From an uncultured Verrucomicrobiota bacterium (GTDB taxonomy: Bacteria > Verrucomicrobiota > Kiritimatiellia > RZYC01), in NCBI GenBank assembly GCA_964490935.1, contig CAZBEO010000006.1:5261-69260 (forward strand): DNA of 64,000 bases, in the 5' to 3' direction. Below, piece after piece: positions 5,447 through 22,831 of this stretch. A program made the translations under genes and the position numbers. The notes beneath the pieces were generated by a model. The model was not told where the DNA came from, did no database searches, and was given only the letters and a program-made list of their open reading frames with translations. The first letter of the stretch is position 1. Every line of letters begins with the position of its first letter.

Positions 5447-6739
<1,293 letters not shown>

Positions 6740-7045
6740 TTAACTCACTCCGCCCTTCGGACGGAGCTCAACACTGAGCCTTTGTGTTCCCGGCCCGACT
6801 CACTGGAGCCGCGCCTGCAAAAAAATACGCGCAAAGGTAGCCGAGGGTACGGCGACGGTCAACGTCAAACCCGGGGCGACGGCTTGAAAGTGGCGAATAC
6901 ATCCCGCCCGGGATGCCCCGCAGCCCGGATGCGACACTTTCCAACCATTGGAAACTTTTAAAACTTCCAAAAAACTGGTGCTGCTGTATGCTGGCCATCG
7001 CTTGATCGCGATTTTCAACCACACAACAAGAGAGAATCAGGAGCC

Positions 7046-7468
7046 GTGACCATGGAAAAGAGAAAAATTTTTATGACCGCCAACGACCACAAGCGTCTGA
7101 CCGACTTGCTCTCAGTGGACGGTTCATTCAACCATCGCGATCGCAAGGACCTTCAATCCCTTCAAGCTGAGCTGCAAAGTGCCGAGGTCATGGAATCGAC
7201 CGCGATACCCAAAACGGTCGTCACCATGAATTCCAAGCTGCGCTTTATGGATATGGACGATCAATCCGAGACGGAAGTCCGGCTCGTATTTCCTTCGGAT
7301 GCCGATATGGCTGAGGGACTCCTCTCGGTTCTTTCCCCCATCGGCACCGCGCTGCTCGGCTACCATGAAGGCGACCTTATTGAATGGGCGGTGCCCGCAG
7401 GCACCCGTCGCATTCGAATTGAAAAAATCCTTTATCAGCCGGAAGCCGCTGGCGATTTAAACCTCTAA
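7046..7468 (+). CDS. rnk: Regulator of nucleoside diphosphate kinase Rnk (GreA/GreB-family C-terminal domain protein)
   Basis: VVTMNSKLRFMDMDDQSETEVRLVFP...LSPIGTALLGYHEGDLIEWAVPAG...YQPEAAGDLNL aligns closely with E. coli Rnk (VVTMNSRVKF...VGAALLGLRVGDSIHW...YQPEAAGDYLL). Confidence 0.85.
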   Translation: MTMEKRKIFMTANDHKRLTDLLSVDGSFNHRDRKDLQSLQAELQSAEVMESTAIPKTVVTMNSKLRFMDMDDQSETEVRLVFPSDADMAEGLLSVLSPIGTALLGYHEGDLIEWAVPAGTRRIRIEKILYQPEAAGDLNL

Positions 7469-7470
7469 TC

Positions 7471-7866
7471 ATGAAGTCCAGAAAACCGCTAGCCTCCCAA
7501 CTGCCCGGCACCACGGATTCGTGGGCGGAAATGCTGCTGGCGCACCCGATTCGTAATGTCGCGGCGAAGGTCACCGGCGGCGAGAATCCCGGCGAGCTTC
7601 GCATTGCCGTTCCGACCCGTCGGAGGCCTTGGTGGTATCACGTTCCTCCGCTGAACTGGATTATCCGCCCGCCCCCGTATCGAACCCTGATTCTGGACCC
7701 GGTCGGCGCTCCAATTTGGGAATTGTGCGACGGGAAAACGACGGTCGAGGACATCATCCGAAACTTCGCAAAAAGTCAAAGTTTGACGTTTCACGAGGCC
7801 AGGGTATCTGTTACAAGCTACCTTCGCTTGTTGATCGAGCGCGGGGCACTGGCCATCGCCCTGTAA
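7471..7866 (+). CDS. PqqD-family / RRE-like peptide-binding domain protein with a 60-aa N-terminal extension
   Basis: C-terminal 70 aa (RTLILDPVGAPIWELCDGKTTVEDIIRNFAKS...SYLRLLIERGALAI) matches the PqqD/RiPP-recognition-element pattern (IWELxDGxRTVxEI...L...GLI). The start is 2 nt after the rnk stop, suggesting translational coupling. Confidence 0.65.
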   Translation: MKSRKPLASQLPGTTDSWAEMLLAHPIRNVAAKVTGGENPGELRIAVPTRRRPWWYHVPPLNWIIRPPPYRTLILDPVGAPIWELCDGKTTVEDIIRNFAKSQSLTFHEARVSVTSYLRLLIERGALAIAL

Positions 7867-9981
7867 TTGGTGTTGTGGTATCGTTTTTTGAGTCTGGCAT
7901 TGCCGCCGGGCGGGAGGCGTTTTTTTGTGAGCTTGCGAGCAATTCTCATTGGTCTACTGGGTGTGGCATTTGTCTGTGGCTACACGCATTTCAACGATAA
8001 CGTCATGCGACAAACGATGTTTGTCGGCAACAGTATGCCTATTTCCGTGTACGGGCTGCTGGTGATCTTCCTCTTGTTTCTGTTTCCGCTGCTTCGTAAA
8101 ATCAATCGGAAACTGCTGCTCAGCCGCAAGGAAATCGTGGTGGTTCTGGCCATGGTGCTGGCGTCCTGCGCGATTCCCGGAAGCAATCTGCTACGCCTTT
8201 TCACGCCGGCGCTGATCATGCCGAACCGCTATCAGCATACCGAGCCCGGTTGGCAGAACCGCCATGTGATGGACCTCGTACCCGAGGGTATGTTGGTGGA
8301 TGTCACACCCGATGAGGAAACCATTTTGAACGGCTACTGCCGCGGACTGAGCACGGGCACCGACCGCATCGGCGTTGGAGAAGTTCCCTGGCGGGCATGG
8401 GTCAAACCGGTGTTCTATTGGATGCCCATTATCCTTTCGCTCTGGATCGCCCTGATCGGCCTTTCACTCGTGGTGCATCGACAATGGTCCAAGCATGAAC
8501 ACTTACCCTACCCGATTGTCACCTTTACCAAATCCCTGCTCCCTCAGGAAAACGGCGAGCCCAGCCCTGTCTTTAAAAACCGCCTTTTCTGGCTGGGTCT
8601 TATTTCCGTGGTCTGCCTGCATGGTTACAATTATCTGAACGTCTGGTTCCCGGAGTACATGCCGGGCAAAATTCCGCTTGGCGTAGACTACAGTTCCATC
8701 GGCGAGCTCTTCACCACCTTTGAAAAGGGCGGCGGGGCGGGGCTGCTTTCCTGGACAGGCACGATTTTCCTGACGGTGGTGGCCGTGGCCTACTTCCTGC
8801 CTTCGGATGTCTCGTTCTCCCTCGGTATCGGGCCGCTGGTGTGGGTGTATCTGGTGGGCGCCATGTCCACCTACGGGTTGGCCACCACGGGCTGGCAGTC
8901 GTCCTGGCCCTACGGCATCACACGCGACTCGATGGTGGACATCGGTGCCTACACGGGCCTGCTGCTCGTGCTGCTGTACACCGGGCGGCATTACTTTACC
9001 TCGGTTTTCAAATCGGCCGTCGGCCTGCCCTCGCGCGAAAAGCCGGAGAAAACCGCCGTGTGGGGTGCGCGGGTCTTCATGATTTCCATGGTCTTTTTCG
9101 TGGTGTATGCGGTGCTACTGGCGCGTATGGACTGGATGATCGCGCTGATGATGGGCCTGCTGATGGTGGCGTTTTATCTGGTGATGGGCCGCATGATTGC
9201 GGAAACGGGGCTCTTCTTCATAGTCATGGTGGGCACGCCGGCCACGATCGTCTGGGCGCTTTTTGGAAGCAAGGCGCTGGGCCCGCAAACCATGTTCATT
9301 ATGTTTATGCTCTGCCTCATCCTCTTCTATGATGCCCGCGAAGCACTCATGCCCTATATGGTCAATTCACTAAAACTGGTGGATGACTGCAAGGTCCACA
9401 TCGGAAAGGTCGCCGCCCTGGCGGTCGCCGCCGTGGTGCTCGGCCTGGCGGTGGGCATTCCGGCCACGCTGTATTTTCAGTATGACGAGGGCGTCGAGGT
9501 GGGCTCCTGGCGCGCAGAACAGGCCAAGACGCCCTTTAATGAGGTGATCGGCACAATGCAGCGCCTAGAGGCGCAGGGCCAACTCGAGGAAGCGGGCCTC
9601 AAGCATGGGCTGGCCCGTTTCACGGATATGTCGCCGCACAAATTGGGCCTATCCTTCTTCGGTGGGTCGCTGTTGCTGGTACTGGCACTCTCCGCACTGC
9701 GCCTTCGTTTTGTGAAGTGGCCGATTCATCCGGTCATGTTTCTGGTTTGGAACACCTATTCCGGCGAGCGGTTTTACCAATCATTTCTAGTGGGATGGTT
9801 CATCAAGGTCATGGTGACGAAATACGGCGGCGCCAGCATCTATCAGGCGGTGAAACCTCTGATGTTCGGCGTGATTGCCGGCGAGATGCTGGGTGGAGCG
9901 CTGCCCATGATTGTCAGCGTCATTTATTATGCGGCAACGGACGGTTCCATACCGAAATCCTTTGAGGTGATGCCCCGCTAA
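7867..9981 (+). CDS. Polytopic membrane protein (at least 12 predicted TM segments), paralog of 17285-19267; possibly distant OPT (oligopeptide transporter) superfamily
   Basis: Long hydrophobic segments throughout. Contains an LPYP motif (KHEHLPYPIVTF), comparable to the E-K-LPFP motif of its paralog and the [KE]L[PT][FY]P motif recalled from OPT/YSL transporters. The true start is uncertain: the TTG at 7867 abuts the pqqD-like stop, while a GTG at 7927 has a GGGAGG RBS. Confidence 0.55.
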   Translation: MVLWYRFLSLALPPGGRRFFVSLRAILIGLLGVAFVCGYTHFNDNVMRQTMFVGNSMPISVYGLLVIFLLFLFPLLRKINRKLLLSRKEIVVVLAMVLASCAIPGSNLLRLFTPALIMPNRYQHTEPGWQNRHVMDLVPEGMLVDVTPDEETILNGYCRGLSTGTDRIGVGEVPWRAWVKPVFYWMPIILSLWIALIGLSLVVHRQWSKHEHLPYPIVTFTKSLLPQENGEPSPVFKNRLFWLGLISVVCLHGYNYLNVWFPEYMPGKIPLGVDYSSIGELFTTFEKGGGAGLLSWTGTIFLTVVAVAYFLPSDVSFSLGIGPLVWVYLVGAMSTYGLATTGWQSSWPYGITRDSMVDIGAYTGLLLVLLYTGRHYFTSVFKSAVGLPSREKPEKTAVWGARVFMISMVFFVVYAVLLARMDWMIALMMGLLMVAFYLVMGRMIAETGLFFIVMVGTPATIVWALFGSKALGPQTMFIMFMLCLILFYDAREALMPYMVNSLKLVDDCKVHIGKVAALAVAAVVLGLAVGIPATLYFQYDEGVEVGSWRAEQAKTPFNEVIGTMQRLEAQGQLEEAGLKHGLARFTDMSPHKLGLSFFGGSLLLVLALSALRLRFVKWPIHPVMFLVWNTYSGERFYQSFLVGWFIKVMVTKYGGASIYQAVKPLMFGVIAGEMLGGALPMIVSVIYYAATDGSIPKSFEVMPR

Positions 9982-9994
9982 TCAAAAAAAACGG

Positions 9995-11524
9995 GTGCAC
10001 GGGGCCGAAGAACAGACAGGTGCAACAACGGGAACGGATGATGAGACGGCTATGAAAGAAATTGATGTACGCGAACAACCTCTGCTCAGCTTCGCCAAGA
10101 CGACGCGCATCGCCCTGGCCGGCGTGAAATACCGCCTCTTCCGCTCCATTGTGACGGTGGCGGTCATTGCTGTGGCCATGGCCTTTCTAATGAATATCCT
10201 CAGCGAAAGTCTGATCAAAAAGGCGGTATCCCTTTCCGCCCGCGAAGGCATCGAGGAAATCCGCCGAACCGATAAATGGGTCGCCAAACTCTCGGTGCCC
10301 CAATCCTACGCCGAACTGATTACCGTGCTTGCCGCTCCCGACGGCTTCTCCAAAGACCGCAACATGCTTGAGCTCGATGAACTTGACCCGGATCAGCAGG
10401 CACGCATCCAACGTCTCGCCGGACAGGCCGCCGTCTATCTCACCTTCTTCGACGAACTGAACTACGGGCGCCGGCGCGTACTCGTCGGCAGCGCCGCGTC
10501 CACCCGTATTCTTGATCTGTTGCAGGATGATGCCCGCCGCGAACGCCTGGCCGAAGCGTTGACCAATATGCGCTCCGTACGCTTTCCCGGCGATCCCGAA
10601 GCCTTTTCCGCCTTTCTCGGGGAGTGGCCCACCCTGCGGGACTATCTCGGCAACGTCCGTGAAAATCAGCGGGCCGCCATTCAATCCGTGCAGGACGCCC
10701 TCAATCAACGCACCATGCTCACCGCTATGCAGCAGGCTGACGGTCCCTTCGGCGAAAGGATTCGCAGCGTCGGGTTCGATCTTCCCGAGGAGGAAGCGGT
10801 CTCGCTCACGGCCCAAGCCATGGCCGTGGCCGACAACAATCTCATTGCGGAAACCATCAACCGCCCCGAACTGCGGCAGGCCGTGGCCGCCCGCTACGAC
10901 GTACTCCCCGGCGATGTCTCGCTCGACCAGATTTGGTCCATGCTCGCAAAGCCGGTCGGGGCCTCCTGGTATCTCGAGCGCATGCGCGAAGGGTCTCTTG
11001 ATCTTCCGGAGCGCCTCACCTCCGAACGCCTGACGGACCTTTCCAGCGCACGGGCCGAATCCAGACTCTACCTCAAGGCCGAACGCCTCACCACCGAAGC
11101 GGGCGGCGGCTTCATGGGTATCGGCGAGCGCATGACATGGCTGGCCTTCGTCTCCATGCTGGTCTGCGTGGTGGGCATTGCCAACGCCATGCTCATGAGC
11201 GTCACCGAACGGTTCCGTGAAATCGCCACGCTCAAATGTCTCGGCGCGCTGGATGGATTCATCATGACTGTTTTTCTGATTGAAGCGTCCGTACTCGGAC
11301 TGGTCGGCGGCGTGGTGGGTACTTTGCTGGGCCTTGCCCTGTGTTTGACCCGCATGTTTTCCATTTTCCATTCCCTAGTTTCTCGCTCGTTCCCGCTGAA
11401 CGAAATCGTTCTGGCGGCCGTGCTCTCCATTGCGGCGGGCGTGATTCTGGCCGCCGTGGCCGCCGTCTATCCCTCGTTCCGCGCGGCGCGCCTGGCACCC
11501 ATGGAGGCGATGCGCATTGAATAA
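9995..11524 (+). CDS. ABC transporter permease, MacB/FtsX family (single FtsX domain: N-terminal TM, about 280-aa periplasmic domain, 3 C-terminal TMs)
   Basis: N-terminal TM RSIVTVAVIAVAMAFLMNIL. C-terminal FtsX signature (LMSVTERFREIATLKCLGA...VLGLVGGVVGTLLGL...AAVYPSFRAARLAPMEAMR). The start may be GTG at 9995 or ATG at 10052. Confidence 0.75.
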   Translation: MHGAEEQTGATTGTDDETAMKEIDVREQPLLSFAKTTRIALAGVKYRLFRSIVTVAVIAVAMAFLMNILSESLIKKAVSLSAREGIEEIRRTDKWVAKLSVPQSYAELITVLAAPDGFSKDRNMLELDELDPDQQARIQRLAGQAAVYLTFFDELNYGRRRVLVGSAASTRILDLLQDDARRERLAEALTNMRSVRFPGDPEAFSAFLGEWPTLRDYLGNVRENQRAAIQSVQDALNQRTMLTAMQQADGPFGERIRSVGFDLPEEEAVSLTAQAMAVADNNLIAETINRPELRQAVAARYDVLPGDVSLDQIWSMLAKPVGASWYLERMREGSLDLPERLTSERLTDLSSARAESRLYLKAERLTTEAGGGFMGIGERMTWLAFVSMLVCVVGIANAMLMSVTERFREIATLKCLGALDGFIMTVFLIEASVLGLVGGVVGTLLGLALCLTRMFSIFHSLVSRSFPLNEIVLAAVLSIAAGVILAAVAAVYPSFRAARLAPMEAMRIE

Positions 11525-11565
11525 CCCCGGCGGGCAGGACCCCGCCTCAAACCGGACCACGCACT

Positions 11566-12339
11566 ATGAAGGACACAGCCACTAAACAGCCGAAAAAGCC
11601 CGAACAAGACCCCAGGAAACGGCGGGTCATCATCCGCACTATCGGCATGAAAAAGGAATACAACCGGGGCGGTGAAATCACCCAGGCCCTGCGCGGCGTG
11701 GACGTCGAACTCTATACCGGCGAATTCATCGTGGTCATGGGCCCCTCCGGCTCCGGGAAAAGCACCTTCTTCAATATGATCGGCGCGCTCGACAGCCCCT
11801 CACACGGGCGCGTATTCATCGACGAAGTGGACGTGGCCCAACTCACCGCCGAAGAACTCGCCTTTCTGCGCTGCCGAAAAATCGGCTACATCTTTCAATC
11901 CTACAATTTGATTCAATACATGACCGCCCTGGAAAATGTGACCACGCCCATGGCCTTCGGCGGTGTGGACCCCGATCAGGCGCGCAAGCGTGGCATGGAC
12001 CTCCTCGAACTGGTCGGCCTGGGAGACCGCTGGTTCCACCGCCCCATCGAAATGTCCGGCGGACAGCAACAGCGCGTCGCCATCGCCCGCTCCCTGGCCA
12101 ATCAACCTTCCGTTCTGCTGTGCGATGAACCCACTGCCAATCTCGACCATCACACCGGGGATGAAATTCTCGCCATCCTGCAGAAATTGAACACCGAGCG
12201 CGGCGTTACCATTATCTGCGCCACCCACGATCACCGGATGATGAACGTGTGCGACCGCCTGCTCTGGATACGCGACGGAGCCATCGAGCGCATTGCCCGT
12301 CGCGACGAAGTGGAAGTGGAACTTGGAAGCATTGATTAG
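11566..12339 (+). CDS. ABC transporter ATP-binding protein, MacB/LolD-type
   Basis: Walker [19 protein letters not shown], signature [15 protein letters not shown], Walker B LLCDEPTANLD, H-loop ATHD. Paralog of 19291-20016. Confidence 0.93.
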   Translation: MKDTATKQPKKPEQDPRKRRVIIRTIGMKKEYNRGGEITQALRGVDVELYTGEFIVVMGPSGSGKSTFFNMIGALDSPSHGRVFIDEVDVAQLTAEELAFLRCRKIGYIFQSYNLIQYMTALENVTTPMAFGGVDPDQARKRGMDLLELVGLGDRWFHRPIEMSGGQQQRVAIARSLANQPSVLLCDEPTANLDHHTGDEILAILQKLNTERGVTIICATHDHRMMNVCDRLLWIRDGAIERIARRDEVEVELGSID

Positions 12340-12353
12340 AAACTAAAAACAAT

Positions 12354-15300
12354 TTGAATGAAAACAGGACCCCATTGAAAAAACGGAGAGTCAACGTGTC
12401 AAAACGCTTAGGGATTACAGGATGGTTGGCGCTGAGCCTGCTTCTGCTTGCGCAGAGCGGTGCCCCGGCGGCAACGGAACAATTTCTCAACGATGTGCGG
12501 AGTCTCACCGCCGCACCGCACCGCCTCGGCGGTACCGAAGAATACGGACGCGCCGCCGACTACGTGCAGCAGCGCCTGACGGATCTCGGCTTGGATGAAG
12601 TCTTTGTCCAGGAATTTCCCTCGGCTCAGACGAAAGTGCTGCGCTGCGAGGCCGTCGCTCCCGGCGGACGCGTCATTCCGCTGGTTCCTGATCGTCCCAA
12701 CGGAATTATCCCGCCTGTCAGCGGGCCCGAAGGCATCACCGGCGAACTTGTTTACGTCGGAACCGGCACGCAGGAAGACTTCCAACGCGCCAATCCCTCC
12801 GGAAAAATAGCCGTCATGGACTATAACTCCGGCGATCAGTTTCTTCAGGTCTTCCGCCTCGGTGCCAAGGCCATTATCTTCGTACGCCAGGAGCCCGCAC
12901 TCGCCTGGAATCACCATTATGTCAACGCCAACGCCAATCTGCCCCGCTACTTCCACGATGGACGCGCCGAAGATCTGCCCCTGGGCGAAACCATCACCAT
13001 CCACAGCGAAATCGTCTGGGAGCGCGTCACCGGGCGCAACGTCATCGCCTACATCAAAGGCACCAACCCGGTCTTCAATTTTGACAAACCCGAGGTGCTC
13101 ATTCTAGCCGCCAATCTGGATACCTTCGGCGATGTGCCACGCCGCTCGCCGGGTGCACGCGGTGCCGCCAACTGCGCCGCCCTCCTCCAACTGGCCGAAC
13201 AATTCAAAAAGAACCCGCCCCGGCGCGACGTCCTCTTTCTCTTCACCGATATGAGCGCACGACTCCACGCCGGCGCCGCCGCCTTCTACTCCGCCCTCGA
13301 AGAAGACGATAAAAGATCCGACATCAACGCGCGCCTCGAATACTGGCAGCAGGAAACCGCCTTCCTGACCAACATGAACGTCCTGATTCAAAGCAGCGAC
13401 CCTCTCTCGCAATCCACCACCCCGCACGGACGCGACCTGGTCAAACGCCTACGCACCAAGGCCGCCGACTATGCCTACCTCGCCCGTGGCACCATCATGG
13501 AACTGCGCGAAGAACTCGACGCACTCAAGAATACCGAAGGAGATCACGCCGAACGCATCGCCCAACTCGAAGAGGAAATAGCCATCGGCGACGTAGATAA
13601 AGACCGCTGGAACGACCTCCGCCGCTACCTCGGAAAAGGGGAAACCGCCCCCGAGGTGAAAGACCTCTTCACCCAGGTACTTGATGCCGTCCACCGTGAC
13701 GCCGAAATACGAACGCGCGAACTCAAGGTGGATGAAAGCATGCTCAAGTCCGCCAAGCGCATCAAGAATCTCCTTGGCGATAAATGGATCAGCCTGCACA
13801 TGACCCTCCTCCTCGGCGATACCACTGACCGCTGGGGCGTCATCGTGGGGGGCAATTCTGAAATTCACTCCCCGCAGGATAACCCAGGCCTCTACGGAAA
13901 AATCAAAACCATCTTTCAGCAGGCCTGGCGCGACTTCGACGCCGCCGGGGAAACCCCGCGCCTGTTTGATACCTATTCCGTGGGTGAAACCCTCGCCGAA
14001 TCGCGACTCCTCTGGGCCGTGCCTATGCTCGTGCACAGCGGCGAAATCGCCGGACGTTTCGGCCTCTACAACATCGTCCTCGGCACCATCCAGGAACGCC
14101 TCGCTCGCGAAGGTACGCCCGATGATACCATGGAACTCATCAACATCGATGCCATCGAAAATGCCGCCGGTGAAATCGCCCTCATGCTCGGCGGAATCCG
14201 CGATGGCAAAAGAACGCCCAACGCCCTCGGCGTGGCCGATCAGGAAGCCCTCTCGATGCGGCGCTCCATCCGCACCGACAAACAGTTCATCACCTCCTAC
14301 TTCGCCAATGGACGCCCGCAGGGTGCGCTCTGCATGGGCCGTCAGCGCGGCAGCTCCATGCCCAACATGGCGGTGCCCGGCGCCACCGTGCAACTGTTCT
14401 CGCACCTGCCTTGGAACAACATCTTCTGGCCCTACAGCAAAGCCTATGGATTCGACCAGTTCTACGTGGTCATGAGCGACCAGAATGGAACCTACAGTTG
14501 CGGGCCGCTCCCCGAAGGCGACGGCAATGTCGTCGGGTTCTCCGCCGCCTTCGACGGAAAAGGCAACGTCAAGCTAGCCTCCGACAACGAATCCACCAAA
14601 CAAGCCCTCACGCGCCTGAACATGTTCAACGCCGCCGATGGTCTTTTCATGCTGCCGCCCGGCTTCTGGCAGGACCCTGCCCGGGTCATGAACGCACGCG
14701 CCAATGCCACCATCTCCGATGATACCGGCACCAAGGCCTATACCGAAACCACCGATGGCGTCATCCTCTTTTTCTGCGAAGACCGCATCCCCGGAATCAA
14801 GGCCTTCGAACTTGGAACCATCGCCGCACTCGCCTACACCCCCGACAAAAAAACAAAGGCCCGCGACGAGCAATACGGCGTCGGGTTCCCCCTCGATACC
14901 GACTGGACCACCATCCGCACCGCCAAACAATCCGTGTACGACATCTGGAACCTCAATGAATCGCGCCTCGCCATCATGCGTAGCCGCGACATCATGAACA
15001 GCTCACTTGAAGAACTTCACGGGCGTATTCAGGATACCCTCAATGAGGCCGAAAAGATCGATTCACCCGCACGGCAGGAAGCCATGTTTGCCGCCTCCTT
15101 CATGAGTGCACGCCCCGTCTACACTATGATCCGCGAAAGCATGGACGACCTCGTCACGGCCGTCCTTATTCTCCTCGCCCTTTGCGTACCTTTCGCCTTT
15201 GCCCTCGAACGCCTCCTGATCGGCGCTTCCATGATCTACAAACAGGTGATGTGGTTCACCATCTTCTTTATCCTCACCTTTGTGATTCTCTACCTCTCGC

Positions 15301-17213
15301 ACCCCGCCTTCGCCATCGCCCAAACGCCCATCATCATCTTCCTCGGCTTCGCCGTGGTGGTGCTTTCCACGCTCGTCATCGTCATCATCATGCGCAAATT
15401 CCAGCTCGAGCTGAAGGCGATTCAAGGCATGACGGCCTCCGTACACGCCTCCGACATTTCCCGCTTCAACACGGTCATGGCCGCCATGAGCATGGGCATA
15501 TCCACCATGCGCCGCCGCCCCCTGCGCACCGCTCTGACCGCCATCACCATCATCCTGCTCACCTTTACCATCCTCTGCTTCGCCTCGTTCGACACGCAGA
15601 AGGGTATTATCAAACTCTTTACCGCCCCCTCGCCCCCCTACACCGGCGTCCTGTTGCGCAACGCCACCTACGGCTCCTACAACCCCGATTACCTCGACAT
15701 CATCGACGCCCGATGGGGGGCCGACGCCATCGTCTGCCCGCGTTACTGGGTCTGCCCCGAGTTCAAAAACGACCCCGACTTTGTCGTCTCGCTTGAAGAC
15801 GGAAGCAATTCCGTTACCCTCCGGGGCATCCTCGGGCTTGATGCCAAAGAACTCGCCCAGCGCGAAGACCTGCGCGAACTGCTTCAGATTCAGAATCCGG
15901 ACGACATTGCCGACAAGGTCTTCATCACCGAAGCCGTCGCCGATTTGATCAAGGCCAAGCCCGGCGACCGCGTCATCATCCAGGGCCTGCGCCTAACCGT
16001 CGGCCCGCTCCTGCAATCCTCGAAATTTTCCATCGCCCGCGATATGGATGGTAGCAGCGTACTGCCCGTCGACTTCCTGGCCATGAAGGATGCTGGCGCG
16101 GATGTTAAACAGGCCTCGGGCGACGCCACCGACGATCAAGCCAAATGGAGCAGCTTGCCGGTGGACTCGATCGTCATCATGTCCAGCGCCAACGCCCTCC
16201 TCAACTACGGCAAATGCCATTGCATTCCAATTTATACCGAGGACTCCCAGCAGGCATCCGAAATCGCCGAGGACGCCGCACGCATGAGGGATAAAACCCC
16301 CATCATCGCCACCCGCAAGGATGGCGTCTACCGCCACATCCTCGGCACCGTCGTGGCTGCCTCTGGCGTGGGCGACCTGCTCTTCCCCGTACTGCTCGGT
16401 GGATTGGTCATCTTCGGCACCATGCTTGGTTCCGTGGCGGACCGCGAAAAAGAAATCTACACCTTCAGCGCGCTCGGTCTGGCCCCGCCGCATGTAGCGA
16501 GTCTCTTCTTTGCCGAAGCCATGGTCTATTCGGTGATCGGCGGGCTCGGCGGCTACCTCATCGCTCAGGGCTCCATGAAAATTCTCGGCTTCCTCGCCAC
16601 CTACGGCTGGGTCCAAGTGCCCGAAATGAACTACTCCTCCACCAACGCCATCGTCACCATTCTCATTGTCATGGCGACGGTCCTGGTGTCCGCCATTTAT
16701 CCTGCGGTCAAAGCCTCGAAGAGCGCCAATCCGGGCCTCCTACGCTCCTGGAAGCTGCCCCAACCCGAAGGCGATGTCATTGACCTGGTCTTCCCCTTCA
16801 CCGTCTCCGAATACGACCTAACCGGCGTGGTCAGCTTCCTGAAAGAACACTTCGAAGCCTTCAGCGATACCGGCTTGGGCTCTTTCATGGCACAAAAAAC
16901 AAAGCTCATCGTCCAGGAGAGCGGAAGCCTTGGTGTCGCGACCCGCCTGGCCATCGCGCCTTTTGACCTCGGCGTCACACAGGATATTTTCCTGAAGAGC
17001 GCCCCCAGCGAAATCCCGGGCATTGACGAGGTGAACATCCGGCTCACCCGCCGCTCCGGCCAGCCCAAGGACTGGGCCCGCCTTAATAAGGTACTCCTCA
17101 ATGACCTGCGCACCCAGTTCCTGCTCTGGCGCTCGCTCCCTGCCGAAACCATGGAAATTTACCGTCAAAGAACGTTGGCTCAAATACATGAAATGAAACA
17201 GGACCCGGCATAA
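12354..17213 (+). CDS. 1619-aa fusion: signal/TM anchor + M28-peptidase-like (apparently catalytically dead) periplasmic domain + two FtsX-type permease domains (about 8 TMs)
   Basis: M28-like block at about 13038-13300 (NVIAYIKGTNP...EVLILAANLDTFG...GARGAANCAALLQLAEQF...RRDVLFLFTDMSARLHAGAAAF) is collinear with M28 motifs, but the His/Asp-Asp/Glu-Glu ligands read N / R-G / S-A. FtsX-type TM bundles at about aa 925-1025 and 1330-1470 (PVLLGGLVIFGTMLGSVADREKEIYTFSALG...AIYPAVKASKSANPG). Confidence 0.75.
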   Translation: MNENRTPLKKRRVNVSKRLGITGWLALSLLLLAQSGAPAATEQFLNDVRSLTAAPHRLGGTEEYGRAADYVQQRLTDLGLDEVFVQEFPSAQTKVLRCEAVAPGGRVIPLVPDRPNGIIPPVSGPEGITGELVYVGTGTQEDFQRANPSGKIAVMDYNSGDQFLQVFRLGAKAIIFVRQEPALAWNHHYVNANANLPRYFHDGRAEDLPLGETITIHSEIVWERVTGRNVIAYIKGTNPVFNFDKPEVLILAANLDTFGDVPRRSPGARGAANCAALLQLAEQFKKNPPRRDVLFLFTDMSARLHAGAAAFYSALEEDDKRSDINARLEYWQQETAFLTNMNVLIQSSDPLSQSTTPHGRDLVKRLRTKAADYAYLARGTIMELREELDALKNTEGDHAERIAQLEEEIAIGDVDKDRWNDLRRYLGKGETAPEVKDLFTQVLDAVHRDAEIRTRELKVDESMLKSAKRIKNLLGDKWISLHMTLLLGDTTDRWGVIVGGNSEIHSPQDNPGLYGKIKTIFQQAWRDFDAAGETPRLFDTYSVGETLAESRLLWAVPMLVHSGEIAGRFGLYNIVLGTIQERLAREGTPDDTMELINIDAIENAAGEIALMLGGIRDGKRTPNALGVADQEALSMRRSIRTDKQFITSYFANGRPQGALCMGRQRGSSMPNMAVPGATVQLFSHLPWNNIFWPYSKAYGFDQFYVVMSDQNGTYSCGPLPEGDGNVVGFSAAFDGKGNVKLASDNESTKQALTRLNMFNAADGLFMLPPGFWQDPARVMNARANATISDDTGTKAYTETTDGVILFFCEDRIPGIKAFELGTIAALAYTPDKKTKARDEQYGVGFPLDTDWTTIRTAKQSVYDIWNLNESRLAIMRSRDIMNSSLEELHGRIQDTLNEAEKIDSPARQEAMFAASFMSARPVYTMIRESMDDLVTAVLILLALCVPFAFALERLLIGASMIYKQVMWFTIFFILTFVILYLSHPAFAIAQTPIIIFLGFAVVVLSTLVIVIIMRKFQLELKAIQGMTASVHASDISRFNTVMAAMSMGISTMRRRPLRTALTAITIILLTFTILCFASFDTQKGIIKLFTAPSPPYTGVLLRNATYGSYNPDYLDIIDARWGADAIVCPRYWVCPEFKNDPDFVVSLEDGSNSVTLRGILGLDAKELAQREDLRELLQIQNPDDIADKVFITEAVADLIKAKPGDRVIIQGLRLTVGPLLQSSKFSIARDMDGSSVLPVDFLAMKDAGADVKQASGDATDDQAKWSSLPVDSIVIMSSANALLNYGKCHCIPIYTEDSQQASEIAEDAARMRDKTPIIATRKDGVYRHILGTVVAASGVGDLLFPVLLGGLVIFGTMLGSVADREKEIYTFSALGLAPPHVASLFFAEAMVYSVIGGLGGYLIAQGSMKILGFLATYGWVQVPEMNYSSTNAIVTILIVMATVLVSAIYPAVKASKSANPGLLRSWKLPQPEGDVIDLVFPFTVSEYDLTGVVSFLKEHFEAFSDTGLGSFMAQKTKLIVQESGSLGVATRLAIAPFDLGVTQDIFLKSAPSEIPGIDEVNIRLTRRSGQPKDWARLNKVLLNDLRTQFLLWRSLPAETMEIYRQRTLAQIHEMKQDPA

Positions 17214-17284
17214 CCGGATGCACCGCCCCTGCTCTGCGGCTGCGCGCCGCCTGATCGGACGATGCAAACGAATGGATTAAGGCT

Positions 17285-19267
17285 ATGACAGAACGTATCG
17301 ACAAAGAACTGGAAGAATTCCGGCAAGTCATGGAGGTGCCCACCACCTTCGAAGATGGCTTTAACTGGACGTCCCTCATCGGCGCCATTTTTATTGCCCT
17401 GCTGATGGTGCCTGGCGCCATTTACATGGGCCTGCTCGCGGGCGTGGGAAACATCGGCTCCGCCTCGCAATGGGTCACCGTGATTCTCTTTATCGAAGTG
17501 GCCAAGCGCGCACACAAAAACCTAAAAAAAGCCGAAATCTTCGTCCTGTTCTTTATGGCGGGCGCCGCCATGGGTCTGCCCTTTTCGGGCCTGATCTGGA
17601 ATCAATTCTTCGCCCGGTCCGATGCCGCCATTGCCAACGGCATCGCTGAGAAACTCCCGGTCTGGTTCGCGCCGCTGGCCTCCTCGGACTCCTACACCCT
17701 GCGCAGCTTTATTCACCCCGACTGGCTGCCCGTGATCGGACTGATCGTCTTCGGAACCTTCTTCGGACAGCTCGCCAACATGGTCCTCGGCTACGGGCTT
17801 TTCCGCATCTCCAGCGACATTGAAAAACTCCCCTTCCCGATGGCGCCCGTCGGCGCGCAGGGTATCATGGCACTCGCGGAAGATGCCGACGAAAAGAACA
17901 TCGAACAACAGGAAAACCGATGGCGATGGCGTGTCTTTTCCATTGGCGGCGCCATAGGTCTAGCCTTCGGGGCCGTTTATCTCCTCTTGCCCACCCTGAC
18001 CGGCGCGCTCACCGGTGCGCCCATTCAGGTGCTGCCCATTCCCTTCTCCGACTTCACCGCCACCACCGGCAAATATCTGCCCGCCGTGGCCACCGGCATG
18101 TGCTGGGACCTAGGCAACCTGATCTTCGGCATGGTCCTTCCCTTCTTTGCCATGGTCGGCTCCTTTGTCGGGCTCATCGTGACCTTTGTGGCCAACCCCA
18201 TCCTCTATCACTACAACATCATTCACAACTGGACCATCGGCGACAACACCGTCACCACCCTCTACAAAAACAACATCGACTTCTACTTCAGCTTCCAGAT
18301 CGGCATTGCCGTGGCCATTGCCGTGGCCGGATTCTGGCAGGTCTTCCGCAGCTTCCAGAAGCGCAAACGGAATGCCGACAAAAAGCACAAGGAAATGGCT
18401 CACACCTACCCCGAAGGACGCGGCGACATCAGCGCATGGACCGTCATTCTCCTCTACTTCATCATCACCGTGATCTACATCCTGGTCTCCGGCTGGCTCG
18501 TGGATTGGCACCGCGGCATCATGATCGTCCTGCTGATTCTGGGGTTTGTCTATACGCCCTTCATCAGCTACGTCACCGCACGCCTCGAAGGTATGGTTGG
18601 GCAGGTCGTGGAAATCCCCTACATCCGCGAAGCGGCCCTCATCCTCAGCGGCTACTCCGGCGTGAAATGCTGGTTCCTGCCCATTCCCATCGCCAACTAC
18701 GGGTCTATGACCGTCTTCTACAAACAATGCGAACTCACCGGCACCAAATTCACCAGTATCTGGAAAACGCAGGTGGTTCTCTTTCCCATCATCCTGATCA
18801 GCTCCATCTTCTTCATGAACTTCATCTGGGGCCTCAATGAAGTCCCCTCCGCCGTCTATCCCTATGCCGACAAAATGTGGGAACTCCAGGCGGAAAATGC
18901 CTGTATCATGTTCTCGGCCACCCTCGGCGAATACTCCATCTTCGAGCAGGCCTTCAACTGGACCAACCTGACCACCGGTCTCATCTTCGGCGTCTTTCTC
19001 TTCGGGGGCATGAATGTGGTCGGTGCGCCCATCATGCTCACCTACGGCGTGGTGCGCGGCCTCGGCCAGACCGAACCCCACTGGGTACTCCCCCAGTTCA
19101 TCGGCGCACTCATCGGACGCTACTACTTTCAAAAAAGAATGGGGCTTAAATGGCGACAATACATCCCCGTCGTCAGCGCCGGATTCGCCTGCGGCATGGG
19201 ACTGATCACCACCGTCGGCGTCGGCATCACGTTCCTGAGCAAAGCGGCCATACCCCTGCCCTTTTAA
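17285..19267 (+). CDS. Polytopic membrane protein (660 aa), paralog of 7867-9981; possibly distant OPT (oligopeptide transporter) superfamily
   Basis: N-terminal GLLAGVGNIGSASQWVTVILF resembles the OPT first-TM/loop pattern (GLKAGxTVSASIPAAVI). EKLPFPMAPVGAQGIMA resembles the OPT [KE]LPFPEGTA motif. The C-terminal portions are collinear with 7867-9981. Confidence 0.55.
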   Translation: MTERIDKELEEFRQVMEVPTTFEDGFNWTSLIGAIFIALLMVPGAIYMGLLAGVGNIGSASQWVTVILFIEVAKRAHKNLKKAEIFVLFFMAGAAMGLPFSGLIWNQFFARSDAAIANGIAEKLPVWFAPLASSDSYTLRSFIHPDWLPVIGLIVFGTFFGQLANMVLGYGLFRISSDIEKLPFPMAPVGAQGIMALAEDADEKNIEQQENRWRWRVFSIGGAIGLAFGAVYLLLPTLTGALTGAPIQVLPIPFSDFTATTGKYLPAVATGMCWDLGNLIFGMVLPFFAMVGSFVGLIVTFVANPILYHYNIIHNWTIGDNTVTTLYKNNIDFYFSFQIGIAVAIAVAGFWQVFRSFQKRKRNADKKHKEMAHTYPEGRGDISAWTVILLYFIITVIYILVSGWLVDWHRGIMIVLLILGFVYTPFISYVTARLEGMVGQVVEIPYIREAALILSGYSGVKCWFLPIPIANYGSMTVFYKQCELTGTKFTSIWKTQVVLFPIILISSIFFMNFIWGLNEVPSAVYPYADKMWELQAENACIMFSATLGEYSIFEQAFNWTNLTTGLIFGVFLFGGMNVVGAPIMLTYGVVRGLGQTEPHWVLPQFIGALIGRYYFQKRMGLKWRQYIPVVSAGFACGMGLITTVGVGITFLSKAAIPLPF

Positions 19268-19290
19268 TGCCGGATTGGAAGGAAAGAAAC

Positions 19291-20016
19291 ATGACTAAAG
19301 AAGTGCTGATTGAAGTTCGCGGACTCAACAAGGTGTTTGACCTTGGCAAGATCAAGGTCCACGCCCTCAAAGAAATGGAAATGGATATTTTCCGCGGCGA
19401 ATACCTGTCCATCATGGGTCCTTCCGGCTCCGGCAAAAGCACCTTCTTCAACATGGTCGGTGCGCTCGATCGCCCTTCCTCCGGCACCGTCACCGTCGCC
19501 GGGGTCAGCCTCAACAAACTCAGCAGCCGCGAACTCGCCTACTTCCGAGGCAAACACATCGGCTACGTCTTTCAGCAGTTCAACCTGCTCCCCGCCTACA
19601 ACGCCATCGAAAACGTCTCCATGCCCCTCCTCTTCTGCGGATGGAAGGACCACGACGCCCACGAACGCGCCGTACAAGTGCTCGAACGTGTCGGCCTCGG
19701 GCACCGACTCACCCATCGGCCCGATGAACTCTCCGGCGGACAGCAGCAGCGCGTCGCCATTGCCCGCGCCCTCGCCAACGAACCCGCCATTATCCTGGCC
19801 GACGAACCCACCGGCAACCTCGACCTGCACACCGGCGAAGAAATCATCGCCCTGCTCAGCCAACTCAGCCGCGAAATGGGCGTCACCGTCATCTCCGCCA
19901 CACACGATCACAAAATGCTCGCCACCTCCGACCGTATCCTCTGGATCAAAGACGGACAAAAAGACCGCCTCGAGCGCCGCGAAGACATCAACATCAAGAT
20001 CGGCACCGTGAAATAG
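19291..20016 (+). CDS. ABC transporter ATP-binding protein, MacB/LolD-type (second copy)
   Basis: [16 protein letters not shown]...[18 protein letters not shown]...[15 protein letters not shown]...[11 protein letters not shown]. The ATG at 19291 has a GGAAGGAAAG RBS; the ORF-track start 19150 would overlap the upstream gene. Confidence 0.93.

Positions 20017-20187: not shown

Positions 20188-22831
<2,644 letters not shown>

Follow-up and report, generated by a model that had tools for sequence, protein, structure and literature searches.

We analysed a 64,000-nucleotide (nt) stretch of contig CAZBEO010000006.1 from an uncultured bacterium of the Verrucomicrobiota (Kiritimatiellia), referred to here as the window, and specifically the gene cluster at its positions 7046–20016. 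According to the list of open reading frames (ORFs) of the window, this interval is filled by eight co-directional genes on the + strand, which we term G1 to G8. An earlier note on this DNA had counted nine genes; its coordinates, common direction and tight packing (gaps of 0–71 nt) were otherwise reproduced. The genes encode an Rnk protein (G1, 7046–7468), a PqqD-like protein of 131 amino acids (aa) (G2, 7471–7866), a 684-aa protein of the DUF6785/6784 families (G3, 7927–9981), an FtsX permease (G4, 9995–11524), an ATP-binding cassette (ABC) ATPase of the LolD/MacB type (G5, 11566–12339), a fused FtsX-type permease of 1619 aa (G6, 12354–17213), a 660-aa protein of the OPT family (G7, 17285–19267) and a second LolD/MacB-type ABC ATPase (G8, 19291–20016). 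Comparison across genomes showed that G3 to G8, with G2 as a frequent accessory, are one conserved system of the cytoplasmic membrane.

With maximal ORFs, the intergenic gaps from G1 to G8 are 2, 0, 13, 41, 14, 71 and 23 nt. Since G3 homologs are 684 aa long, G3 probably starts at GTG 7927 and not at the beginning of its maximal ORF (7867), and the stop codon of the PqqD-like gene therefore lies 60 nt upstream of G3 instead of abutting it, as had been stated. The N-terminal consensus of G4 homologs, MKxIDV, suggests a start of G4 at 10052, and the likely start of rnk is ATG 7052, preceded by AGGAG at 7037–7041. There was no terminator-like hairpin in the + strand intergenic gaps of the cluster, as the earlier note had also stated, and the 16 terminator-like sites found were at chance level, compared with 14.0 ± 3.4 expected from shuffled sequence.

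An alignment of G3 homologs served as the query against GTDB, with a single genome representing each species, and the scan returned 419 relatives. The best 80 of the 419 were taken with 10-kb flanks, and the window proteins were mapped onto them. The cluster was found in 47 distinct loci, most commonly in the order G2-G3-G4-G5-G6-G7-G8, and the gene series in these loci ended only at the limit of the fetched DNA or of the contig. The carriers belong to Kiritimatiellia/Verrucomicrobiota, Lentisphaerae, Victivallales, Planctomycetota/Brocadiia and Sumerlaeia, comprising at least four bacterial phyla, and every one of the 38 Kiritimatiellia-type G3 genes was cluster-linked. In most lineages the set is completed by the two ATPases and G4. 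The place of G3 was variable, as it lay at the far end of the cluster in L043, L058 and L063, upstream of G2 in L040, L057 and L064, and in two tandem copies in Brocadiia. The same genes in the same order at 47 loci go against the possibility, raised beforehand as one that would refute a common system, that homologs of these genes do not co-occur in other genomes.

More distant versions of the cluster were also recognised. A marine locus (L090) has the order G3-G6-G7-G4-G5-G8, which is the full set minus PqqD, with a G4 homolog that lacks the middle domain described below. Shorter versions consist of G3-G6-G7 with a PDZ insert in G7 (L088), a HEAT-repeat protein followed by G6 and a G7 with a Reg_prop insert (L091), G6-G7 (L092), a TPR protein followed by G6-G7 in Ratteibacteria (L086), and G3-G6 (L087). 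Two Bathyarchaeia contigs (L089, 2–3232; L093, 1–2310) carry the C-terminal half of a G6-like gene (positions 1191–1609 of the hidden Markov model, HMM) and, immediately after it, a G7-like OPT gene; both contigs stop inside the G6-like gene. The 47 loci of the same order, the retention of relocated G3 genes and the full set minus PqqD in L090 indicate that G3 to G8 are functionally linked. Furthermore, the occurrence of G6-G7 or G3-G6(-G7) alone in L086, L087, L088, L091, L092 and Bathyarchaeia indicates functional linkage of a core, and G6 adjoining the OPT-family protein G7 was shown to be its invariant part, with G3 and the two ATPases usually present too.

G7 matched the Pfam OPT family (PF03169) with 37.1 bits against a cut-off of 25.8, its residues 146–642 covering profile positions 104–616 of 623. 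It showed the highest conservation among the non-ATPase members (65–81% identity between phyla), and 944 relatives of it were present among 1.84 billion representatives at 50% identity. On the other hand, G3 (DUF6785, 288 bits; DUF6784, 75 bits) gave no match to the OPT profile at E ≤ 0.1, and it is placed in this family by fold alone. Its AlphaFold2 model, built from 81 sequences with a predicted local distance difference test (pLDDT) of 91.9 and a predicted template modelling score (pTM) of 0.92, has the OPT/YSL fold of YS1, the iron-phytosiderophore transporter, which was its only structural relative. On this model, DUF6785/6784 is an OPT-fold family that sequence methods overlook. Neither the G3 profile nor G7 had a sequence match in the PDB. 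The OPT-like nature that had been suggested for both polytopic proteins is thus borne out, by Pfam for G7 and by fold for G3. However, they had also been described as paralogs, and for this we found no significant sequence similarity: the BLASTP E value between them was 1.5, the hhalign probability was 3.6%, and they have in common the OPT fold and, in sequence, only an E(H/K)LP(Y/F)P motif.

All characterised OPT members are cation-coupled importers, genome context suggests peptide uptake for many prokaryotic members, and oligosaccharide uptake was predicted for one prokaryotic subcluster, while none of the prokaryotic members had been studied biochemically (PMC3061005). YS1 itself is a proton-driven elevator-type homodimer (PMC9691689). 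Among the G7-type OPT proteins, P0324, P0327, P0329, P0335, P0346 and P0348 are 35–45% identical and have insertions of 150–420 residues near the position of G7 residue ~550, which contain PDZ, WD40 or Reg_prop beta-propeller domains and would thus be binding domains built into the transporter. G3-family genes also occur solo, in several copies per genome, in Lentisphaerae/Victivallales (L045–L084; for example L001, L053, L056, L059 and L075). The neighbours of these solo DUF6785/6784 genes are unrelated (GT2, AcrB, HZS_alpha/F5_F8 proteins, a ceramidase-like protein, sugar-metabolism genes and unknowns), which suggests that the OPT-fold protein can also act alone; these neighbours were heterogeneous and no functional theme was found around the solo loci in Lentisphaerae.

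The two ATPases, G5 and G8, were each recognised by profile match. They are 50% identical, both carry [13 protein letters not shown][IV]GALD, and their nucleotide-binding motifs (Walker A, signature and Walker B) are intact, so that the description of two paralogous LolD/MacB-type ATPases with a common motif stands. Their best-scoring models were LolD and MacB, and the LolD model gave 215 bits for G5 and 245 bits for G8 against a cut-off of 307.75. In G4 (FtsX, 61 bits), a first transmembrane helix (TM1, 51–69) is followed by a domain of ~310 aa between TM1 and TM2 and by three C-terminal TMs. The transmembrane part of G4 matched MacB, LolF and LolC in the PDB search at E values of 1e-18 to 1e-9, and the middle domain had neither a PDB nor a Pfam match. 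TM1, a large ectodomain, three further TMs and a LolD/MacB-like ATPase together make up a type VII (MacB-type) ABC unit, and with FtsX found in both G4 and G6 and the two ATPases in G5 and G8, the two MacB/FtsX modules that had been proposed are present.

G6 is the largest protein of the cluster, with 7–8 TMs and two ectodomains predicted from hydropathy. From the N-terminus, it consists of a signal/anchor, ectodomain 1, membrane bundle 1, a cytoplasmic loop, a TM, ectodomain 2, an FtsX bundle of three TMs and a C-terminal cytoplasmic domain; a model of residues 1–930 was confident (pLDDT 92.3). The first part of ectodomain 1 (12474–14192, residues 41–613) was assigned from the model and profile as a complete M28 alpha/beta fold that is interrupted by a PA insert and by a long helical hairpin of ~150 residues (324–474). 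The second part (14271–15143) is mainly beta-strand in the secondary structure of the model (~640–830), and then becomes a helical stalk (856–929) that leads into the membrane. The membrane core (15150–16721), delimited by hydropathy, conservation and matches to FtsX, PDB and PADLOC entries, comprises three TMs (933–1011), the loop (1012–1057), a TM (1061–1079), ectodomain 2 (1080–1335) and the FtsX bundle (1340–1456). Conservation in this core is 0.8–0.95, and the cytoplasmic loop is highly conserved. Ectodomain 2 and the membrane bundles matched MacB, LolC/E/F and YtrF chains. The C-terminal cytoplasmic domain of ~160 aa (16731–17210) was delimited by its conservation, which is 0.75–0.85; it is also present in the Bathyarchaeia homologs, where HMM positions extend to 1609, and had no match in Pfam and PADLOC.

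The profile of the G6 family, whose ectodomain comprises 79 clusters at 90% identity, matched 2ek8 (6e-18), nicastrin (6.5e-8), the transferrin receptor (1e-5) and nicalin. We checked the M28 catalytic site in 72 G6 homologs at the three alignable ligand or catalytic positions, the two C-terminal ligands not being among them. The first His (HxD) was replaced by N in 42 and P in 9 homologs and retained as H in 8; the bridging Asp (GAxDxxSG) position was occupied by G, S, A, P, N or R and never by D; and the Glu-Glu pair was replaced by G, N or A followed by Q in 54, with E in only 9. On the other hand, the substitute motifs PGARGAANCA and FxDxQARGHAG are conserved. Since most or all of the homologs depart from the canonical residues at each of the three alignable positions, the M28-like ectodomain is a pseudo-peptidase, as had been suggested; it is under selection and most simply a putative binding module.

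The earlier note had also ascribed two FtsX domains to G6. Pfam recognised only one of them (37.7 bits, residues 1346–1456), and the first bundle (933–1011) is predicted from hydropathy and from the LolE_TM part of a PADLOC model. Residues 875–1501 matched PDLC01991 'CARF_m8--CARF_LolE_TM' at positions 14–596 of 810 (E 9e-60, 200.7 bits) and PDLC01990 'CARF_Beta-galactosidase_LolE_TM' with E 2e-26, indicating that the double-FtsX core is a reusable scaffold that carries different ectodomains. G6 thus shares with the CARF_m8--CARF_LolE_TM family a double FtsX/LolE-like membrane core on which ectodomains are swappable. No CARF domain was detected in G6, as positions 597–810 of PDLC01991 remained unmatched, and the C-terminal domain alone and the ectodomain alone gave no PADLOC match. 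We also considered membership in a defence system and rejected it; PADLOC gave only generic ATPase matches in addition to the LolE_TM core. The window has no CRISPR or defence context.

G2 matched PF05402 with 34.3 bits against a cut-off of 23.4, the PqqD fold occupying residues 74–126 behind an extra, unassigned N-terminal half of ~70 residues. Its only PDB profile matches were PqqD and lasso-B1 proteins, and these were weak (E 0.1–0.9); in NCBIfam, G2 was far under the cut-offs of all specific PqqD-family models. The PqqD-like assignment therefore withstood the profile search, but core membership did not hold: G2 was found in 37 related loci, was missing in at least five with ample upstream sequence (L008, L021, L031, L050 and L054), and was absent from all distant versions of the cluster. 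In 18 loci, the gene directly upstream of the PqqD-like gene encodes another soluble protein of ~290–310 aa, which we term G0 (for example L015:8663–9553, L040:4626–5555 and L067:1070–1975, in addition to 15 other loci). G0 shows invariant W, C, D and R residues as well as an N-terminal motif, W..LP.DWE.L.(F/Y)...GRC.FADR, and had no match in Pfam, PADLOC and PDB. G2 is thus an accessory member; it is a cytoplasmic protein, and both G2 and G0 were seen in the loci examined from the Planctomycetes–Verrucomicrobia–Chlamydiae (PVC) group and Sumerlaeia. We considered whether G2 binds the invariant N-terminal tail of G7; the tail is equally conserved where G2 is missing, so that this is an unsupported conjecture.

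The window has no G0 homolog, and its slot is taken by rnk. G1 matched GreA_GreB (74 bits), Rnk_N (30 bits) and the Rnk equivalog model PRK05753, the last with 124.3 bits and thus above the cut-off of 109. As the rnk stop codon is 2 nt before the ATG of the next gene, rnk is probably co-transcribed with the cluster. However, rnk adjoins the cluster only in the window and in its nearest relative, L005, which makes it a lineage-specific neighbour rather than the system component for which it had been taken.

We next considered partners that related systems would require. All-versus-all clustering of the flanking ORFs of the 47 loci gave no conserved membrane-fusion adaptor, outer-membrane factor, kinase or two-component system, peptidase, precursor or tailoring enzyme, and G0 and the 23S_rRNA_IVP inserts described below were the only additional ORFs of at least 50 aa that recurred. 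Peptidoglycan hydrolase, division, metallophore biosynthesis and glycoside hydrolase genes were likewise not conserved in these loci. None of the eight window genes encodes an HlyD-like or TolC-like protein, none of the window genes matched SBP_bac_5 or BPD_transp_1, and no substrate-binding protein was present among the conserved neighbours. The earlier note had reported no tailoring enzyme or precursor ORF for ribosomally synthesised and post-translationally modified peptides (RiPPs) and no substrate-binding protein of the Opp/Dpp type, and this holds both for the window, with its gaps of 0–71 nt, and for the conserved ORFs of at least 50 aa.

The cluster resembles several known systems in part. 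Like MacAB-TolC, LolCDE/LolDF and YtrEF, it has LolD/MacB-type ATPases and FtsX units of the TM1-ectodomain-three TM layout, and the matches of G4 and of ectodomain 2 and the bundles of G6 to MacB, LolC/E/F and YtrF would lead one to expect mechanotransmission. It differs from them in lacking a MacA-type adaptor, TolC and a LolA/B partner, in the fused double unit of G6 with its ~890-aa first ectodomain and conserved C-terminal cytoplasmic domain, in consistently adjoining OPT-fold proteins, and in having a core that extends to archaea. The NCBIfam models for LolCDE, MacB, FtsEX, DevCA and DarD all scored well under their cut-offs, with MacB at 49–225 bits against 966 and lolCE at 51.8 against 362, in addition to the LolD values given above. 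To our knowledge, efflux, lipoprotein release, heme extraction and hydrolase activation are the only tasks that have been ascribed to type VII ABC systems. FtsEX with EnvC or PcsB is similar in that an FtsX-type ATP-driven module has as its output an inactive enzyme fold bearing a coiled coil outside the membrane; in the cluster, however, the dead fold is M28 and not LytM or CHAP, it is fused to the permease, and the partners are of the OPT fold. FtsX models gave 26–30 bits against 225–255, FtsE gave 200–209 against 264.85, and there is no hydrolase partner. In sensing permeases of the BceAB type there are 10 TMs, TM7 and TM8 enclose the ectodomain, and a BceRS-type two-component system is encoded alongside, whereas G6 has 7–8 TMs and two ectodomains, with no kinase or regulator in the cluster or among its conserved neighbours. 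An Opp/Dpp-type ABC importer would include a cluster C substrate-binding protein and type I permeases, and no matches to either were present.

The OPT-fold proteins resemble the OPT/YSL transporters (TC 2.A.67; barley YS1, PDB 7wsr), as G7 is a Pfam OPT member and both are polytopic proteins of ~660–690 aa. They differ in that G3 lacks a sequence-detectable OPT signature and in that two very divergent proteins are co-encoded; the OPT members known to us act alone and not with an ABC module. The dead M28 ectodomains of nicastrin, GPAA1 and the transferrin receptor are receptors in membrane complexes. G6 shares with nicastrin of gamma-secretase, GPAA1 of GPI transamidase, nicalin and the transferrin receptor an M28 (+PA) fold, a disabled metal site and linkage to the membrane, and its profile and model match these proteins. 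They are, however, eukaryotic single-pass proteins, whereas in G6 the fold is fused to an ABC permease and carries a long helical hairpin, and the recognition or gating role established for them would apply to G6 by analogy. G2 resembles PqqD and lasso B1 in residues 74–126, as described above, and differs in its additional N-terminal half and in having no precursor, radical-SAM enzyme, protease or cyclase beside it.

Taken together, we tentatively favour a reading in which peptides are captured by a receptor module driven by ATP and handed on to OPT-fold importers, although we give it somewhat less than even weight. In MacB, LolCDE and FtsEX, ATP-driven motion is passed on to extracytoplasmic domains and no substrate moves through the permease. 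G6, powered by G5 and/or G8 and aided by G4, would be a mechanotransducer of this type VII class, a nature argued for by the matches of its FtsX bundles and ectodomain 2 to MacB, LolC/E/F and YtrF and by the best scores of the ATPases against LolD and MacB. By analogy with nicastrin and the transferrin receptor, its dead M28/PA ectodomain may be a receptor for free peptide termini that captures extracytoplasmic oligopeptides or exposed protein ends. This role is suggested by an M28 fold that is non-canonical at its catalytic positions yet retains conserved motifs, by the nicastrin, transferrin receptor and nicalin matches, and by the PDZ or beta-propeller binding domains in G7 relatives. ATP hydrolysis by G5 and/or G8 would cycle the ectodomain, so that the ligand is presented or released to G3 and G7, which would import it by cation symport and might form a heterodimer comparable to the YS1 homodimer. 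Import is the direction indicated since G7 passes the OPT threshold, G3 has the YS1 fold and the characterised OPT members are importers (PMC3061005). In PVC and Sumerlaeia lineages, the cytoplasmic G2, with G0 where present, might bind the incoming peptide or a membrane-subunit tail as a chaperone or regulator.

Several points weigh against this reading. We know of no type VII ABC system that feeds a secondary transporter, so that the coupling step is without precedent. In several distant loci (L087, L088 and L091), G6 has no ATPase gene nearby, so that the ATP dependence of the core is only presumed. The substrate, the direction and the physical association of the components are assigned by analogy; a peptide substrate is suggested by fold ancestry alone, and the role of G2 as a cytoplasmic binder is pure conjecture. 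In the PADLOC sister family, the same membrane core bears an ectodomain of the beta-galactosidase type, Reg_prop propellers are found in some G7 relatives, solo G3 paralogs occur in non-peptide contexts, and nutritional uptake would more naturally retain an active peptidase. An OPT subcluster has moreover been predicted to serve oligosaccharides (PMC3061005).

These last observations lead to a serious alternative, namely the same architecture with a ligand other than a peptide, for example an oligosaccharide, a nicotianamine- or opine-type metal chelate, folate or glutathione, with the M28-like domain being only a scaffold. The only structural relative of G3 is an iron-phytosiderophore transporter, the substrates of OPT members include metal chelates, glutathione and folate, the PADLOC sister family and the Reg_prop domains of G7 relatives point the same way, solo G3 paralogs adjoin glycan-related genes, and the carrier lineages are mostly polysaccharide degraders (PMC10880615). 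Nevertheless, the M28/PA fold, the PDZ inserts and the PqqD-like partner all come from peptide-handling families, and the cluster has no conserved metallophore biosynthesis or glycoside hydrolase gene beside it, and we hold this alternative to be rather improbable. An opposite direction of transport would follow if the MacB-type modules constituted an extrusion or resistance machine that, like BceAB, MacAB and YknWXYZ, clears the periplasm or outer leaflet of (lipo)peptides or antimicrobial peptides; the dead M28 domain would then do the sensing, and accessory or salvage tasks would fall to the OPT-fold proteins. The earlier note leaned this way, as it had suggested that the locus could be a periplasm-facing machine for the sensing, processing or extrusion of peptides or lipopeptides. 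The MacB/LolC-type permeases and their ATPases suit such a machine, known type VII systems (MacB, LolCDE, BceAB and HrtBA) act on extracytoplasmic or membrane-embedded substrates, and a large ectodomain is typical of sensing permeases. However, an adaptor, an outer-membrane factor or a two-component system was conserved in 0 of the 47 loci, the core pair occurs in Bathyarchaeia, which are archaea without an outer membrane, and housekeeping flanks together with the presence in all 38 retrieved Kiritimatiellia-type loci fit core physiology better. In addition, the most conserved and invariant partner is of the OPT family, whose characterised members are all importers (PMC3061005). We consider extrusion unlikely overall, and extrusion towards the outer membrane is disfavoured.

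FtsEX controls the catalytically dead LytM protein EnvC. The movements of G4 and G6 could similarly control the turnover of the wall or surface layer through the dead-enzyme ectodomain, with G3 and G7 recycling (muro)peptides. Such an envelope regulator would agree with FtsX-type permeases that have coiled-coil-rich ectodomains, with the precedent for a dead hydrolase fold as FtsEX output (PMC11491553) and with the nearby uppS gene, but it is very unlikely given FtsX and FtsE scores far under the NCBIfam cut-offs, the lack of any conserved peptidoglycan hydrolase or division gene, and a core that is shared with Bathyarchaeia, which have no peptidoglycan. The PqqD/RRE fold of G2 and the resemblance of the ATPases to DarD (190–204 bits, under the cut-off of 375) would be explained if the cluster matured and exported a RiPP-like product, with precursor and tailoring genes elsewhere, PqqD binding the leader and the membrane proteins exporting as in darobactin DarBCD. 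We regard this as highly improbable: tailoring enzymes and, apart from G0 and the 23S_rRNA_IVP inserts, further conserved ORFs of at least 50 aa are missing from the 47 loci, PqqD itself is missing from several loci and all distant versions, the gaps of the window are too short for a precursor ORF, and the flanks are housekeeping genes. Finally, each family also occurs singly, and solo DUF6785 genes are common in Lentisphaerae, as a chance adjacency of unrelated transport genes would have it; an order kept in 47 loci of at least four bacterial phyla, the retention of rearranged G3 and a G6-G7 pair that reaches archaea leave hardly any room for this explanation, which is effectively ruled out by synteny.

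No mention of DUF6785 or DUF6784 was found in the literature, nor any work combining FtsX/MacB with OPT, PqqD, M28 or nicastrin in this sense, which agrees with the earlier note, in which the composition was not recognised as a described system. Public annotations of the proteins read 'peptide transporter', 'OPT/YSL family transporter', 'DUF6785 family protein' and 'FtsX-like permease family protein'. Every component comes from a known superfamily, and what is new is the combination, the partners and the ectodomain of a type VII ABC system. Going beyond the capture-and-import reading, the cluster could represent a new hybrid transporter class, in which a type VII ABC system with a dead-peptidase receptor is physically and obligately coupled to an elevator-type OPT-fold heterodimer and ATP gates or feeds secondary transport; the class would be ancient, with its core in Bathyarchaeia, PVC, Sumerlaeota and Ratteibacteria. 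We put this forward as doubtful, and if true it would provide a role for DUF6785/6784 and for prokaryotic OPT proteins, which are widespread yet biochemically uncharacterised. The pairing of type VII ABC and OPT proteins with a nicastrin-like dead M28 receptor fused to the permease would mean that ATP is linked in a novel manner to secondary transport or surface recognition. DUF6785/6784 gains a fold and a context, G2 offers a testable case of a PqqD/RRE-fold protein outside a RiPP pathway, and the cluster probably encodes a nutrient- or ligand-handling machine of abundant and poorly studied anaerobic heterotrophs (Kiritimatiellia, Lentisphaerae, Planctomycetota and Bathyarchaeia). The conservation and architecture are robust and surprising; the function is what we infer from them.

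The cluster is flanked by the housekeeping genes purA (5447–6730) and purB (20188–21546), both on the - strand and thus opposite to it, and uppS is present nearby in the window. The 315-nt spacer between purA and rnk would presumably house the operon promoter, and no sigma-70-like promoter match was found in it. An 84-aa ORF on the - strand of this spacer (6768–7022) had no Pfam match and may be spurious. Neither a tRNA nor an Rfam family was detected in the window, and terminator-like and promoter-like sites were not in excess.

In five of the loci, 23S_rRNA_IVP genes, which encode four-helix bundles, lie within or beside the cluster (L024:13552–14046, L011:16617–17006, L016:11932–12576, L009 and L029). 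Their insertion points vary, being between G4 and G5, between G7 and G8 or after G7, and the operon order is undisturbed, so that they look like mobile or selfish insertions. On a 5.97-Mb contig (L085:9621–14161), a G6-like gene of 1386 aa has only a fragment of a G5-like ATPase upstream and glycan-related neighbours, and is probably a decayed copy of the cluster. In the window, the sign of the GC skew switches from about -0.2 to +0.2 at ~20000, exactly where gene orientation flips from + to -; this switch is a coding-strand C>G bias and not a replication landmark.

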